Shown one piece after another: positions 8,357 through 25,237 of a stretch of DNA of 45,006 nucleotides. Source of the DNA: a virus. A model generated the notes under the pieces. That model made no database searches, was not told the origin of the DNA, and was given only the letters and a program-made list of their open reading frames with translations. The position numbers and the translations under genes are program-made. Positions within the stretch are counted from its first letter, which is position 1; the number at the start of each line of letters is the position of its first letter. The stretch covers positions 1 through 45,006 of the IMG/VR virus record IMGVR_UViG_3300045988_102880; one strand, written 5' to 3'.

Positions 8357-8494
8357 CGACTGCACACCAAGGTGCAGTGTATTACCTACACCCATATATT
8401 ACCACCTGGAATGCAGTCACGCAAGAGATAATGTCAAGAATTGTCGAAAAAAGTCGGCTGTATTTTTTATGCCCAAAAACAGGAGGTAAACGGG

Positions 8495-9628
8495 ATGGCA
8501 AAGAAAAAATATACAATGGGAGCAGATGGATATTACCGGACGAAGGTATGGGACGGAACCTACAACAAAGACGGCACGAAGCACCGGCAGAACCTGTGCA
8601 GTAAGAAGTCCAGCAAGGATCTGGAGAATCAGGTGGAAGCATTCAAGAAGCAAGTGGAAGAATCGCTGCGGAAAGGACAGATAGCTACACAGGCAAGTGA
8701 TATGTCCGTGTACGAATACGCACAGCAATGGAAGAAAACCTTTAAGCAGACAAGGGAAGCGAACACACAAGCTATGTATGAGAATATCATCGAGAAGAAG
8801 ATCGTTGCCCTGTCTGGAGTAAAACTGTCGGAAGTATCCCGTATCCACTTCCAGCAACTGATAAATAATAATGCGGATCACCCGCGCACCTGCCAGCAGA
8901 TCCAAGTCACATTTAAGCAGATCATAAAGAGTGCGATCTGGGACTCTCGCTTGCCTGCAGAAGCCTATGACCGTATCTGTTCGGAGATTTCTGCACCGGA
9001 ATATAAAGCACCGAAGAAGCGGCCGCTGACAGCTCTGGAGAAGGAAGCAATCAAAAAGGCAGACTTCACGGACCGGGAACGCTGCTACGTGTATCTGATC
9101 TACGGTCTGGGACTGCGCCGAGAGGAGGCTCTGGCACTCTGCCGGACAGACATCAACTTGCAGACCCGGAAAATCCGGGTGCATACGGCAGTCACCTTTG
9201 TCAGAAATGATCCGATTGAGAAGGGTCCGAAGTCGGATAACGGATACCGTGAGATCCCAATGCCAGATTTCCTCTGCCAGTTTCTGAGCGAGTACCTACA
9301 CGGTAAGAACGGATATCTGATCCAGAAGGTTCGGGGCGGTGGCAAGCTGACAAAATCATCATTCCGGCGCATGTGGGATTCTATCCGGGACAAAATCAAC
9401 ATTGCCGCTGGTGGAAATTCGGTGGTTGATATGGTTCCAGGTCTGACCTCTCATGTGTTCCGGCACAACTTCTGCACGGAGCTGTGCTACCAGGTCCCGA
9501 AGATCTCCATCAAAAAGATAGCGGAGATCATGGGAGACACGGAGAAGATGGTTATGGACGTGTACAGTCACATCCAGGAAGACAAAGAAAAGACCGCTGA
9601 AGCCGTGGAATCTGCCATTGGATTTTAG
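8495..9628 (+). CDS. int: Tyrosine integrase
   Basis: AGGAGGTAAACGGG precedes the ATG. N-terminal arm-binding-like YYRTKVWDGTYNKDGTKHRQ. Catalytic signature LGLRREE...SHVFRHNFCT...MVMDVYSH. Confidence 0.9.
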   Translation: MAKKKYTMGADGYYRTKVWDGTYNKDGTKHRQNLCSKKSSKDLENQVEAFKKQVEESLRKGQIATQASDMSVYEYAQQWKKTFKQTREANTQAMYENIIEKKIVALSGVKLSEVSRIHFQQLINNNADHPRTCQQIQVTFKQIIKSAIWDSRLPAEAYDRICSEISAPEYKAPKKRPLTALEKEAIKKADFTDRERCYVYLIYGLGLRREEALALCRTDINLQTRKIRVHTAVTFVRNDPIEKGPKSDNGYREIPMPDFLCQFLSEYLHGKNGYLIQKVRGGGKLTKSSFRRMWDSIRDKINIAAGGNSVVDMVPGLTSHVFRHNFCTELCYQVPKISIKKIAEIMGDTEKMVMDVYSHIQEDKEKTAEAVESAIGF

Positions 9629-9806: not shown

Positions 9807-9857
9807 TGAGGCATCGGGGATTCGAACCCCGGACAACTTGATTAAAAGTCAAGTGCT
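9807..9857 (-). other. attP core: 3' half of a tRNA-Lys(UUU) gene (anticodon arm, T arm, acceptor 3' strand)
   Basis: Minus strand reads cttga-cTTTTaa-tcaag gttgtc cgggg-ttcgaat-ccccg atgcctc a. There is no D arm or 5' acceptor strand upstream. Confidence 0.75.
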
Positions 9858-9904
9858 TAAAACACCATTTTCGTCCGAAATATCAACGTTTTTGACGATT
9901 GGCG

Positions 9905-10012: not shown

Positions 10013-10726
10013 TTATGCCTGCACAACTACTGCGTCAAAGCCTGCTTTCTTCAGTTTGTCAGCCTGTGCCTGTGCATTTTCTTTTTTGCTGTACGCACCT
10101 ACTTGAACACGGTACAGAGCTTTTCTGTCACCCGTGGAAGTTTCCTCGCCCTGTTCTGCTTTATCCGTTTCCGGTGTAATCTGCACGCGCTCTCCGGTGA
10201 TTCCATACACGATAGCATCAGCCATCTCCTCATAGGAATACAGCTGCACATCATCCTTGTCGTCCACAAAGCAGCACTCCAACAGCAGTGCCGGTGCCTT
10301 ACTTTTTTTAAGCACATACAGTTTCTGACTGATCTTCACACCACGATTTTTAAAGCCAAGATTGCTGATTGCCTGGCAGATCTTCTCAGCAAACGCTTTT
10401 GCCTTACTTGTCGCAGAATAAACATAGCACTCTACACCAGTGGTCTTACCGTTTCCACCTTTATCGCCTGCTCCAGAGTTGAAGTGAATGGAAACATCCA
10501 GATCTACTGCATGGGCATTGCATTTCGCAATGATCTTTTTCAGCACATCGACCTGCCCTGTACCGTTATCGACCGTGCAATCATAAACGATGTGACCAAG
10601 CTGCCGAAGCTTACTGATCACCTCATCTTTTACTCGTCTGGCCTCGGTTGACTCATTGATAAGACCTACTGCTCCGCAAGCTACCTTTCCAGCCGGATTA
10701 TGTCCAGCATGTACATTGATTCTCAT
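10013..10726 (-). CDS. Endolysin: N-acetylmuramoyl-L-alanine amidase (Amidase_3-like) with a C-terminal SPOR domain
   Basis: MRINVHAGHNPAGKVACGA...DLDVSIHFNSG...LLLECCFVDDKDD, then RVQVGAYSKKENAQAQADKLKKAGFDAVVV. Confidence 0.85.
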   Translation of the reverse strand: MRINVHAGHNPAGKVACGAVGLINESTEARRVKDEVISKLRQLGHIVYDCTVDNGTGQVDVLKKIIAKCNAHAVDLDVSIHFNSGAGDKGGNGKTTGVECYVYSATSKAKAFAEKICQAISNLGFKNRGVKISQKLYVLKKSKAPALLLECCFVDDKDDVQLYSYEEMADAIVYGITGERVQITPETDKAEQGEETSTGDRKALYRVQVGAYSKKENAQAQADKLKKAGFDAVVVQA

Positions 10727-22633: not shown

Positions 22634-23704
22634 TTAACCTCTTGTGATGATCTGTGCAATAGCGATTGCTTTGATTGGGAAATACTTCTTGGAAGAAGTA
22701 GCATTGTTGTTTGCCAGCTCCCAGTTTGTGCCACTTTCAAGCTGCTCTTTTGTCGGTGAGACAATGCCGCTCTGCTTGAAACTGATACCGTAAGGGGAGA
22801 AGATCTTTCGCTGCCTGGAATACAATGTATCCTCTCCGCCGTTCTTCGCCGGGTCTCTATCCATCTCATACGGAACCTTTGCGCCGCAGTTGGTATACTC
22901 GATTGCGCCCTGTCCAAGAACGTAAGTGGTATACGCGGTGTAAGTGTATCCGTCCCCTTTTCCAGTATCGGATTCCGGAACGGTCACTTCTTTGGTCGGC
23001 ATATTGTCGTCAACCAGGACAACTCTACCATTGAGGGTGGCAAGGGTCAGCTCTCTCTCAATGCCGTCCGCATCCGTGCCCTTCATGTAGGATACCAGCT
23101 TCAGATTCTCCAGATTGGTCGCCACCTGGGAATGCATGATAGCCAGCGCAAACTTGGACTTGTTATCCCCGAGTGCCTGCTGGATTGCGTTATTCAGAGT
23201 AGTTTCTCCGAACTTTCCAGTTTCACCAGTATTAGCGGTAATGTCGTAGGTGTGGCCGTCCACGAACTTCTTGTTCTCGGTTCCGGTCATGGAAAAGATA
23301 CCTTTCAGAGTAGATACAAGGGTCTCCTGGTCGATATCATCCCAATACTCTGCGACCTCTTCTGCTGCAGGCATGAAGTCCTCTCCGGTAATGTCGGAAG
23401 AGAAATCTTTCTCTGTCCATCCGTGCGCACGTCCTACTACAATTCTGCCGTGAGTGAACGTGTCTCTGGAATCTGCCGTAATATTGGTAGATCCATCATA
23501 GTTCTGTGGATTTCCACTGATTCTTGCTTTGATCGGCACAGTGATATAATTACCACCTGTCTGATCCGGGAGCATATCTGCATACTGCGGTTTTTCTACG
23601 ATTGCTCCAGACTTGATAAGTTCGTTTCTGTTAAGATTCGGGACTTTGTCAACATATGCCCCAAAAACTTCACCATTAAAGTTTTTCTGGTCAAATAAAG
23701 CCAT
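22634..23704 (-). CDS. Major capsid protein
   Basis: 356 aa, directly after the GP20-type scaffold gene. N-terminus MALFDQKNFNGEVFGAYVDKVPNLNRNELIKSGAI. Confidence 0.8.
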   Translation of the reverse strand: MALFDQKNFNGEVFGAYVDKVPNLNRNELIKSGAIVEKPQYADMLPDQTGGNYITVPIKARISGNPQNYDGSTNITADSRDTFTHGRIVVGRAHGWTEKDFSSDITGEDFMPAAEEVAEYWDDIDQETLVSTLKGIFSMTGTENKKFVDGHTYDITANTGETGKFGETTLNNAIQQALGDNKSKFALAIMHSQVATNLENLKLVSYMKGTDADGIERELTLATLNGRVVLVDDNMPTKEVTVPESDTGKGDGYTYTAYTTYVLGQGAIEYTNCGAKVPYEMDRDPAKNGGEDTLYSRQRKIFSPYGISFKQSGIVSPTKEQLESGTNWELANNNATSSKKYFPIKAIAIAQIITRG

Positions 23705-23787: not shown

Positions 23788-24432
23788 TTACATGTACTGT
23801 GTGATATCCAGATCCGGATTTTCATTTTTCATTTTCATAAGCTCAGACATAGTGTATTTCTGTCCTTCTGGATGCATCTTAGCTGTCGGTTTTGTAAACA
23901 CAGCTTTCTTCTGGTTTGCATCAATTTGCTGTTTGTCAACAAAAATTCCGGTTTTCTGTTTTCCGTCCGCATCGGTAATCATACCCTTAAAGATGTCGCT
24001 GATAGATTTTCCTTTCGCAGAATCTTTGTCCAGCTCCTGCACCAAAGCTTCCCGATAATGCTGCTCAGTAATGTCATTCAAAAATTCGTACTGCTTCACT
24101 CCCTTATCATCCACAGATGCAAGGAAATCATTCACAGTCTTTTCGACTTCAACCTTCCGAGCGTCCGCCGCTCTGGCTTTCTTTTCATCATCGATCTGAG
24201 TAGTGAGAGTGCTAATCTGGTTTTTCAAATCATTTACATCGACATCCTTAAATCCGTCCAGCTTTGCCTGCACATCATCCAGAGATGTCTTATATTCGTC
24301 TCTTTTTGTCACTACCTTGTCATAATCTGATTTTGTACGATAATTTTCATCCATCTTCTTTTTCAGATCGCTTTTTTTATCCTCTGGAATCTCGATACCA
24401 AGCTCCGCAAGGATCTGTTCATAATTCTGCAT
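23788..24432 (-). CDS. Scaffolding protein (Phage_GP20-like)
   Basis: Acidic coiled-coil 214 aa: MQNYEQILAELGIEIPEDKKSDLKKKMDENYRTKSDYDKV... Confidence 0.75.
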   Translation of the reverse strand: MQNYEQILAELGIEIPEDKKSDLKKKMDENYRTKSDYDKVVTKRDEYKTSLDDVQAKLDGFKDVDVNDLKNQISTLTTQIDDEKKARAADARKVEVEKTVNDFLASVDDKGVKQYEFLNDITEQHYREALVQELDKDSAKGKSISDIFKGMITDADGKQKTGIFVDKQQIDANQKKAVFTKPTAKMHPEGQKYTMSELMKMKNENPDLDITQYM

Positions 24433-24808
24433 AACATCCTCCTAAACGTGATTATTAACCGCCCGTCAGCGGTATGGATTCAGCCGGATAAACCACCGGC
24501 GGGGTAATCGGAACACCCGGGATCGAACCGGAACAAAGGGCGCGACCCTTCACATCTGCCATTGATGATATGTTCCATATGCTGTCTTTCCAGCCGTCAG
24601 CCCGGACACCAGGCACAATGCGCATGTCGGACATTGCATCCGCTTTTCAACCTCCCGGTTTGGCCGTGTTGCCGGAGGTTAGCAACACCCGGTTTCTATT
24701 AAGGACATGCGCGCCATTCAACAAGTTACCAAAAGGAAAGAAGGTGCATATGGTTTCACCACACATTCATCATATCTTGTATACTGCTGTCTCCTGTCAC
24801 CACATCAT
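24433..24808 (-). ncRNA. Candidate structured RNA / structured leader (pseudoknot domain plus tRNA-like cloverleaf)
   Basis: 376 nt with no ORF of 60 codons or more, about 56% G+C by hand count over 24461-24720. A 9-bp closing stem (24620-24628 / 24704-24712) encloses an H-type pseudoknot (24666-72/24682-88 and 24649-55/24674-80). A cloverleaf lies at 24508-24577. Confidence 0.45.
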
Positions 24809-25237
24809 TTACGCATCTGCCAACATGCGGATCCGGTTCATAATTTCCCGCTTTTCCTCCTGGAAGTCAGAATCCATAATCATTGCAGACAAAAGATCGT
24901 ACATCTCAACCATCAGCCGTCCAACAGCTTCCATCAACTTGTCCTTATGGCCCTGATCTCCGGTCTTCTTGTAATCCTGTTTAGCCGCAAGATATACATC
25001 GTATAACGCATCTATGTTATGGTCATATCTGCCGTTGGAATACTTCTTGATAAGCCCTTCCGCAACCTCAGACACGGTTTCTTTACTCACGTATGAGCCG
25101 GATTCCATGCATTTAAGGTTGTTAATCACACTCGTCAGCTTAAAGATCGTATCCAAATTATTCGCCGTCAGCTTTTCTTCCGCATTTTTCTTTTCGATTT
25201 CAAGCTGTTTTTCCATTACTTCAATCAGTTTATGCAT
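24809..25237 (-). CDS. Hypothetical helical protein, 142 aa
   Basis: Same-strand ORF overlapping the upstream gene by 8 nt. Confidence 0.55.
   Translation of the reverse strand: MHKLIEVMEKQLEIEKKNAEEKLTANNLDTIFKLTSVINNLKCMESGSYVSKETVSEVAEGLIKKYSNGRYDHNIDALYDVYLAAKQDYKKTGDQGHKDKLMEAVGRLMVEMYDLLSAMIMDSDFQEEKREIMNRIRMLADA

Follow-up and report, generated by a model that had tools for sequence, protein, structure and literature searches.

RAGATH-21, a tRNA-like element and a two-hairpin leader precede the scaffold gene of a temperate gut phage: a possible composite RNA leader

What separates the accessory genes from the scaffold gene in the late head-gene operon of a temperate gut phage, and what might it do there? 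The question is raised by a minus-strand spacer (24808-24433) in the IMG/VR virus record IMGVR_UViG_3300045988_102880, analyzed over its positions 1 to 45,006 (hereinafter the window, i.e., the whole stretch of 45,006 nucleotides [nt]). The spacer lies between a gene of unassigned function coding for 142 amino acids (aa) (24809-25237) and the scaffold gene; the genes for the terminase large subunit, portal and minor head protein are upstream of it, PHROGs confirmed the head module, and the operon as a whole reads terminase, portal, minor head protein, small accessory genes, spacer, scaffold and capsid. The source phage is a prophage of a gut bacterium and one of a family of temperate Lachnospiraceae phages. 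An initial annotation, made from the sequence of the window, had placed a structured RNA between the accessory genes and the scaffold and capsid genes, drawing a closing stem around a pseudoknot, a cloverleaf and two further hairpins. Sequence inspection located every one of these pairings, and the G+C excess that it estimated at about 56% is 0.56 at 24500-24699 versus 0.37-0.46 in the flanking DNA. Homology and covariation bear out the general claim: three independently conserved RNA modules lie in fixed order inside the late head operon, namely a RAGATH-21 RNA, a tRNA-like element and a two-hairpin leader (Table 1), and in all three the paired regions are kept and covary among relatives. These identifications are very probably right; that the spacer serves as a composite RNA leader of the scaffold-capsid genes in Lachnospiraceae temperate phages is, in our judgment, an evenly balanced proposition.

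The 5′ module is a member of RAGATH-21 (RF03097; Weinberg et al., 2017, NAR 45:10811; PMC5737381). In a cmscan of Rfam models over the whole window, it matched the full model (positions 1-76) at 77.8 bits against a gathering score of 70.3 bits, with an E-value of 1.6e-13. The closing helix P1 varies at pairs 2-7 and 9 yet stays paired, with both sides changing in seven of ten pairs of a 26-member alignment, and its G.U and U.G wobbles are those expected for the gene strand, so the RNA is read in the same direction as the genes. Across these 26 diverse members, 96.5% of the cells in P1 and the base of P2 are paired (27-55% in slid controls) and 11 pairs are double-changed; AUU follows P1 in most members, though not in all. 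The base helix of P2 (CCGG/CCGG, 24692-24689 with 24658-24655) covaries at all four pairs (C-G, U-A, A-U and others, in 39 distinct P2 versions), and its first base pairs with the base preceding GAGG, as expected of RAGATH-21; beyond it lies the 7-bp hairpin of the initial annotation (24688-24666; stem 24688-24682 with 24672-24666), with the apical loop UAACCUCCG, which corresponds to the 24-nt insertion at the P2 tip. P3 and P4 can form in the window and are invariant among the sampled members, an invariance that comes from having used this core to search. An exact-pattern search of IMG/VR for the conserved core yielded at least 120 further RAGATH-21 loci; such a procedure fixes parts of the alignment and inflates apparent conservation, and the contigs of one large study dominate the IMG/VR samples. 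A conserved GGAGG resembling a Shine-Dalgarno (SD) sequence is made up of the start of P3 together with the preceding GGAG (24655-24652), and a conserved AUG (24639-24637) sits in the P4 loop, 11 nt past GGAGG.

The second module is a cloverleaf homologous to an annotated phage tRNA-Ala: in a BLAST search of phage records, 24571-24506 proved 80.6% identical over 66 nt to the tRNA-Ala(cgc) of Ruminococcus gnavus phages. Two pattern scans returned a family of 76 loci with 45 distinct sequences, and in an alignment of 25 members 97.1% of the cloverleaf cells are paired (31-54% when slid), with six pairs double-changed, the D stem being invariant in this sample because of the search pattern. These kept stems and compensatory changes uphold the tRNA relationship seen by the initial annotation, and its reading of the element as a tRNA mimic or processing signal remains live. 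The D loop AAUGGCA (with GG), the 7-nt anticodon loop GUCGCGC (with U33) and the T loop UUCGAUC (closed by G53-C61) are joined to a variable loop of 2 nt and an acceptor-D linker of 3 nt, unlike the 4-5 nt and 2 nt of class I tRNAs, and no CCA is encoded. The acceptor has 7 bp in the fold first drawn, while ARAGORN draws an eighth pair and a 4-bp T stem. On the window ARAGORN makes no tRNA call at its default threshold; at 95% of that threshold it reports a 70-nt tRNA-Ala(cgc) at exactly 24577-24508. No Rfam tRNA match was listed for this stretch at E ≤ 10, and the best Rfam match of the relatives' copies is a sub-threshold tRNA-Sec at 22-28 bits. The family seems to derive from tRNA-Ala: CGC, AGC or UGC is the anticodon in most members, and in one (L254) the GGGG start, the G3.U70 pair and the anticodon UGC are those of an ordinary tRNA-Ala. 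The G3:U70 pair is an identity element for alanyl-tRNA synthetase. Position 3:70 is, in the window's acceptor register, G-C in the window and in 24 of the 25 members, being G.U in L254 alone; in addition G32 can pair with C38, and the variable region of the family has 2-3 nt. Collectively, these features point to an RNA retained for its shape rather than for decoding, or one at the start of decay.

The third module leads into the scaffold gene. It reads UUACCCC, hairpin H1, UGAAUCCAU, hairpin H2, the SD sequence AGGAGGA (24443-24437) and the scaffold start codon (24432-24430), the consensus among relatives being UUACCYY, H1, UUAAUCCAUU, H2, AGGAGGAU and AUG; in phage MT839484 the module is 94% identical. 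Elsewhere it comes after the last tRNA, and in Dulem virus 35 (L003) and in L010 it directly follows P1 of RAGATH-21. The two 3′ hairpins of the initial annotation are present and covary: in 18 diverse loci H1 and H2 are jointly 99.5% paired, and six of their 11 pairs change on both sides. A small linker hairpin between RAGATH-21 and the cloverleaf may be a decayed copy of H1. Its likeness to H1 is marginal (shuffling p ~0.05), and in one relative a pair is lost; an H1 duplication following RAGATH-21 was not upheld at this p-value.

Table 1. Coordinates of the RNA modules, neighboring genes and other features (window positions unless a locus is named)
Feature	Position	Strand	Basis or measure
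RAGATH-21 RNA (Rfam RF03097): closing helix P1 around hairpins P2-P4; conserved junctions CUUAAUAGAAA, GAG	24619..24713	-	cmscan
P1 5′ strand, pairs with 24628-24620 (9-bp closing stem of the initial annotation)	24704..24712	-	9 Watson-Crick pairs
P1 3′ strand, then A-UU	24620..24628	-	sequence, family alignment
P2, unusually long here	24655..24692	-	aligned to Rfam; 24-nt insertion in P2 loop
P3, GUU-GAAA-AGC	24651-24642	-	Rfam consensus alignment
P4, GGA-UGCAAUG-UCC	24641-24629	-	Rfam consensus alignment
Non-canonical tRNA-like element, tRNA-Ala(CGC) type	24508..24577	-	BLAST homology, ARAGORN 95%
Whole 3′ leader module	24430..24507	-	26 distinct versions
Leader hairpin H1, GCCGG-UGGUUUAU-CCGGC	24483..24500	-	100% paired (n=18), 3/5 pairs double-changed
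Leader hairpin H2, ACCGC-UGACGG-GCGGU	24458..24473	-	99% paired (n=18), 3/6 pairs double-changed
Small linker hairpin GCCUGG-UGU-CCGGGC	24600..24614	-	minimum free energy (MFE) fold
Pyrimidine tract CCUUCUUUCCUUUU	24731..24744	-	differs from 99%-identical relatives
Scaffold protein gene (GP20 / Phage_scaffold family)	23788..24432	-	PF06810 at 7.7e-12, phrog_194
Major capsid gene, next after scaffold	22634-23704	-	phrog_247 at 7e-86
Overlapping open reading frame (ORF), 128 aa	24570-24956	+	ORF list
Overlapping ORF, 99 aa	24707-25006	+	ORF list
GP20-a or GP20-b (in one locus a sub-threshold gut-2) in leaders of distant loci	L349:698-796, L352:269-367, L353:657-759, L344:379-440, L341:653-700		Rfam

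The surroundings of these modules recur across the sampled phages. RAGATH-21 precedes the scaffold gene in at least 125 related gut-phage loci, wherever the available sequence reaches that gene, and the relatives keep a one-strand order of two upstream accessory genes (up230 and up148), variable genes, RAGATH-21, tRNAs, scaffold, capsid and adaptor. Among GTDB genomes the exact core occurs mostly in assemblies of Lachnospiraceae and other Clostridia, including an Enterocloster hominis isolate; E. hominis CLA-SR-H021 (locus L280) carries the element. One to three same-strand tRNAs, starting 3-405 nt past P1, follow the element in 87 of the 125 loci (the cargo includes Met, Asn, Ile-UAU, Tyr, Thr+Ala(cgc), Val and Gln); CCA is missing at or just past the called end of 66 of the 71 distinct tRNAs in this slot, many of which are then followed by a UUACCY trailer. 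Shortly 5′ of P1, nearly all related loci carry the motif UUCCUCCUUUC, which also stands before an unrelated structure in L306; by our own reading, the pyrimidine tract of the window is probably its degenerate counterpart. The motif is identical to the anti-SD end of Firmicute 16S rRNA, and its usual partner in MFE folds is a purine run close to a putative transcription start. We rejected the idea that CCUCCUUUC marks a divergent gene start, as an opposite-strand ribosome-binding site plus ATG in some loci: relatives do not keep the start codon, and where examined the upstream gene has the same orientation. A separate observation concerns Dulem virus 35 (PP511522.1; L003:2424-2555), where a GenBank coding sequence for a 43-aa 'hypothetical protein' exactly covers RAGATH-21 (2425-2501) and is probably an RNA mis-annotated as a gene.

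The same position accommodates other RNAs. In 82 loci (L004:1713-1764, L156-L236) a short sister motif stands there before the scaffold gene, followed in 80 of them by a tRNA, mostly Ile-UAU. It consists of an 8-bp closing helix, CCUU-(GCGG/AACG)-GAAGGUUGAAAAUGC and a canonical T-arm-like hairpin, GG-UUCGAYU-CC, that adjoins the closing helix, and it lacks P2; at E ≤ 10 Rfam returned no family for it, RAGATH-21 included, beyond chance-level matches. This geometry suggests that RAGATH-21-type elements mimic the acceptor/T-arm half of a tRNA. In the clade of L306 (L306:590-900, L307-L319 and L331), whose scaffold protein is 72-73% identical, a different stem-loop replaces RAGATH-21 after CCUCCUUUC, and is followed by a terminator-like hairpin, the 3′ half of a tRNA only (T arm GGTTCGAATCC plus trailer) and an H1/H2 pair with further compensatory changes. 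Distant scaffold homologs have GP20-a, GP20-b and tRNAs at this position: the GP20-a and GP20-b models match there in L349, L352 and L344, one distant locus gives a sub-threshold gut-2 match in its scaffold leader, and tRNAs are often present too. The scaffold leader is a general hot spot for unrelated structured RNAs.

How might the three modules work together? A consensus scan found no terminator-like site on the gene strand in or around the spacer of the window, and a promoter scan of the spacer gave nothing convincing, that is, nothing exceeding shuffled expectation; for these reasons read-through transcription of the spacer is expected, with all promoter and terminator calls in this work being matches to consensus only. 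The mechanism that we tentatively favor, and regard as possible rather than probable, would have the late transcript run through the spacer and be cut at the tRNA-like element by the RNase P (5′ side) and RNase Z (3′ side) of the host, the latter being proposed because CCA is not encoded. RNase Z processes CCA-less tRNA precursors in Bacillus subtilis. Cutting would split the upstream message from a scaffold-capsid mRNA now starting at H1/H2 and the strong SD sequence, which could stabilize that mRNA or act as a cis-regulatory site. The tRNA-like element, as a descendant of a phage tRNA-Ala, would thereby fill the slot taken in relatives by one to three CCA-less tRNA genes. RAGATH-21 itself folds independently, and we consider it more likely to act as an RNA in its own right (for processing or punctuation, or as a stable small RNA) than as a classical riboswitch of the scaffold gene; an autonomous or co-transcriptional role is favored because in relatives tRNA genes can put several hundred bases between the two. 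A bolder form of this proposal, which we consider unlikely but worth stating, makes RAGATH-21 and the sister motif a tRNA-like minihelix, its closing helix stacked on the T-arm-like hairpin, that would be read by host tRNA-processing enzymes, punctuate the late transcript and mark a hot spot for gain and loss of tRNA cassettes, with the tRNA-Ala look-alike of the window, which lacks G3:U70, kept for processing and not for decoding.

Several observations weigh against a composite leader that is processed in this manner. Folding energies are unexceptional, with z-scores of -2.07 (5′ element), -1.1 (cloverleaf) and -0.4 (3′ hairpins), and the spacer as a whole equals its shuffles (+0.5), so homology and covariation have to carry the case for function. 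A promoter-like box precedes RAGATH-21 in many relatives, where the unit may be transcribed on its own. The L306 clade retains just the 3′ half of a tRNA at this position. The tRNA-like element fails both default ARAGORN and the Rfam tRNA model, and may be a poor substrate or a decaying pseudogene. Finally, two IMG/VR contigs are 99% identical to the window, with ~6 differences in 412 nt, and two of these fall in the anticodon arm: an inserted G that gives an 8-nt loop and a G-to-U change.

Such observations lead to the alternative that the tRNA-like element is a neutral, decaying remnant with no role, leaving RAGATH-21 and H1/H2 as the only functional parts. The polymorphic anticodon arm and the scores below default tRNA thresholds fit this explanation, as do the free gain and loss of tRNAs at this position (~20 cargo combinations), the T-arm-only remnant of L306 and the decayed family members L249, L253 and L247. 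However, all three 99%-identical relatives keep their acceptor, D and T arms intact, the changes that set the window copy apart from its closest clade preserve pairing (7:66 U.G to C-G, 28:42 G-C to A-U), and across the family 97.1% of cells are paired; we therefore regard a neutral remnant as an unlikely explanation, albeit one to be taken seriously. Unlikely too is the converse, that the cloverleaf is a working if unusual decoding tRNA, which would supply Ala-GCG or another amino acid while the late genes are expressed, with RAGATH-21 as the leader of a tRNA cassette. A family this widespread, its four kept arms, the canonical GG of the D loop and UUCGAUC of the T loop, the Ala-type anticodons of most members, the ordinary tRNA-Ala features of L254 and the bona fide tRNAs in the same position of relatives all speak for decoding. 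The near-universal G-C at 3:70, the possible G32-C38 pair, the 2-nt variable loop, the 8/4 acceptor/T stems drawn by ARAGORN, the tRNA-Sec matches that stay below threshold in relatives (with none listed for the window copy) and the 8-nt anticodon loop of near-identical relatives speak against it.

A further possibility is that RAGATH-21 is a cis-acting transcriptional element, e.g., an antiterminator like HK022 put, which would lie just past an internal promoter and modify RNA polymerase for the long structural operon. In most loci (e.g., L002, L003, L005, L007, L023 and L028) an extended -10-like box (TGTGGTAAAAT, TGnTACAAT or TATAAT) precedes P1 by ~60-82 nt, with a small covarying hairpin and a run of U residues after it; counted over unique upstream regions, most likewise have TGnTAAAAT, TGnTACAAT or TATAAT at this distance. 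Such an arrangement points to an internal promoter in relatives, which would serve RAGATH-21, the tRNAs and the scaffold gene alike. Some loci (L010, L039, L068 and L074) instead show a clear intrinsic terminator immediately before the element, and a co-transcriptional role would be compatible with tRNAs intervening before the scaffold gene. Against this, the window has at the equivalent place only a degenerate counterpart, the weak TATGAT at 24774-24769, rather than a good promoter-like box; the scan of its gene strand found no downstream terminator-like site; Rfam shows no likeness of the element to known antiterminator RNAs; and the support consists wholly of consensus matches. We accordingly hold a put-like element to be improbable.

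The initial annotation had instead taken the 5′ element for an H-type pseudoknot, in which the loop AACCUCC (24680-24674) pairs with GGAGGUU (24655-24649) and, in an alternative reading, could so hide the SD sequence of a 29-codon ORF as a translational switch. The 7-nt complement it noticed is real and rare by chance (perfect in 0.4% of insert shuffles), and the GGAGG with its AUG 11 nt on is kept across the family; three of the four other P2 versions in the window's clade also have a 5-nt complement (CCUCC in L002 and L084, ACCUC in L142), which would faintly suggest an interaction limited to that clade. Across the family, however, the pairing is not kept, with CCUCC present in the P2 loop of just three of the 39 P2 versions, and it conflicts with the family fold because G24655 forms the covarying closing pair of P2 and GUU (24651-24649) forms P3 of the Rfam model. 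The partner is itself ambiguous, as the loop of L002 fits the scaffold SD sequence (GGAGGAU) better than the internal GGAGGUU, and the MFE folds mostly match CCUCC to a purine run farther upstream rather than to GGAGG, which is invariant in the sample. Nor did the switch find support in the ORF: that frame is not conserved, the ORFs starting at the conserved AUG give 55 distinct peptides of 12-97 codons, and only MQFP is common to them, these residues being shared because they are encoded by RNA-conserved bases. A new pseudoknot is thus rejected as the identity of what is a catalogued RNA, and a pseudoknot switch is very improbable.

Protein-coding explanations fare no better. The earlier statement that the spacer holds no ORF of 60 codons is correct for the gene strand, where the longest has 59 aa (24634-24455), and fails on the plus strand, where two ORFs (128 and 99 aa), probably spurious, overlap both the spacer and the upstream gene's end. 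No Pfam or PHROG match at E ≤ 0.01 was obtained for any spacer-overlapping ORF (29, 39 and 59 aa; plus strand, 99 and 128 aa), the sole match being to a PHROG at 0.054 for the 99-aa ORF. In the 99%-identical relatives, a 1-nt indel shifts the frame of the 59-aa ORF. We consequently rejected the small ORFs as coding, given no significant profile match, no conservation and these frameshifts, and the protein homology that would have marked a decayed gene was not detected at E ≤ 0.01. That the spacer is such a gene, or that its structures are chance products of G+C-rich sequence, is hardly credible, since against a whole-spacer folding energy at the level of shuffles and the presence of overlapping ORFs on both strands stand the profile searches, empty at E ≤ 0.01, the broken 59-aa frame, the strong covariation in three modules and the Rfam match of the first.

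What does the locus add? RAGATH-21 is already catalogued and the cloverleaf family is already annotated as tRNA-Ala in GenBank phages, so the locus adds members to known kinds of RNA. RAGATH motifs were found close to ribozyme-associated genes, which is merely a lead, and no known ribozyme family in Rfam matches the spacer. The literature searched contained no mention of RAGATH-21 and no published function for it. Nor did the search find a description of its constant place before the scaffold gene, its link to tRNA accumulation, the shared trailer, the CCUCCUUUC motif or the sister motif with its T arm, some of which may already be known, the supplement of the 2017 discovery paper lying outside that search. 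RAGATH-21 is an orphan family, and the locus and its relatives give it a precise and repeatable context: before the scaffold-capsid genes, usually followed by CCA-less tRNA genes, and ahead of a covarying two-hairpin leader. More generally, the DNA before GP20-type scaffold genes attracts several unrelated structured RNAs with unexplained roles. If the processing model were true, it would reveal a way for a temperate gut phage to set its most abundant structural mRNAs apart and boost them, and would explain the build-up of tRNA genes at the scaffold leader. Elsewhere in the window, a 60-nt tRNA-Lys(UUU)-like sequence without a D arm (9807-9866, minus strand; Rfam tRNA, 36 bits), for which ARAGORN makes no call, is flanked by a tyrosine integrase gene (8441-9628, plus strand; PF00589) and an amidase endolysin gene (10013-10726, minus strand); it is probably a partial tRNA copy left behind at the prophage attachment site.

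Compared with known systems, the 5′ module shares with RF03097 the helix P1, the junction CCUUAAUAGAAA, a variable P2, the core GGAGGUUGAAAAGCGGAUGCAAU and an association with phages of gut Firmicutes. It differs in the 24-nt P2 insertion with its AACCUCC loop, in a single substitution just past the core that makes the P4 loop UGCAAUG rather than UGCAAUU, and in its degenerate version of the upstream CCUCCUUUC motif. The tRNA-Ala(CGC) of MT980836 (phiRg507T2_2 and relatives) has the same D arm, T arm, GUCGCGC loop and 3-nt linker as the window copy and likewise lacks G3:U70; the window copy has a variable/T region shorter by 1 nt and a U.G first pair, scores below the ARAGORN default, and lies inside the head operon rather than after a RinA activator gene. 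In MT980836 this odd tRNA-Ala(cgc) and a normal tRNA-Asn (L001:1494-1566, 1755-1829) come just after the RinA-family late activator gene, so that in R. gnavus phages the family occupies a second, different context at the head of the late operon. A published listing (PMC10690425) already places GP20-a, GP20-b and six more candidate RNAs immediately before GP20 genes. Like GP20-a (RF02991) and GP20-b (RF03003), the window has a structured RNA directly before a GP20/Phage_scaffold gene; however, its H1/H2 match neither Rfam model, with no hit to either in the window at gathering score and none in the spacer at E ≤ 10. Theta ribozymes, which resemble those of hepatitis delta virus (HDV), adjoin tRNAs in gut Caudoviricetes and have a proposed role in tRNA maturation (PMC10879173). 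Both they and RAGATH-21 are small structured RNAs linked to gut-phage tRNA genes, but the former have the HDV fold and are found 3′ of the tRNA, whereas RAGATH-21 lies 5′ of the tRNAs and has a different fold. For punctuation by tRNAs there are precedents in mitochondrial transcripts, the MALAT1 mascRNA and the E. coli tyrU-tufB co-transcript; the window resembles these in having a tRNA-shaped element inside a longer transcript, at which cuts by RNase P and RNase Z are proposed, and we claim no membership among them. Structure near the 5′ end and a strong SD sequence (STAB-SD, 5′ hairpins) stabilize mRNAs of Firmicutes, and the scaffold protein of P22 regulates its own synthesis post-transcriptionally; by analogy only, these are precedents for roles that H1/H2 and AGGAGGA could have before the scaffold gene.

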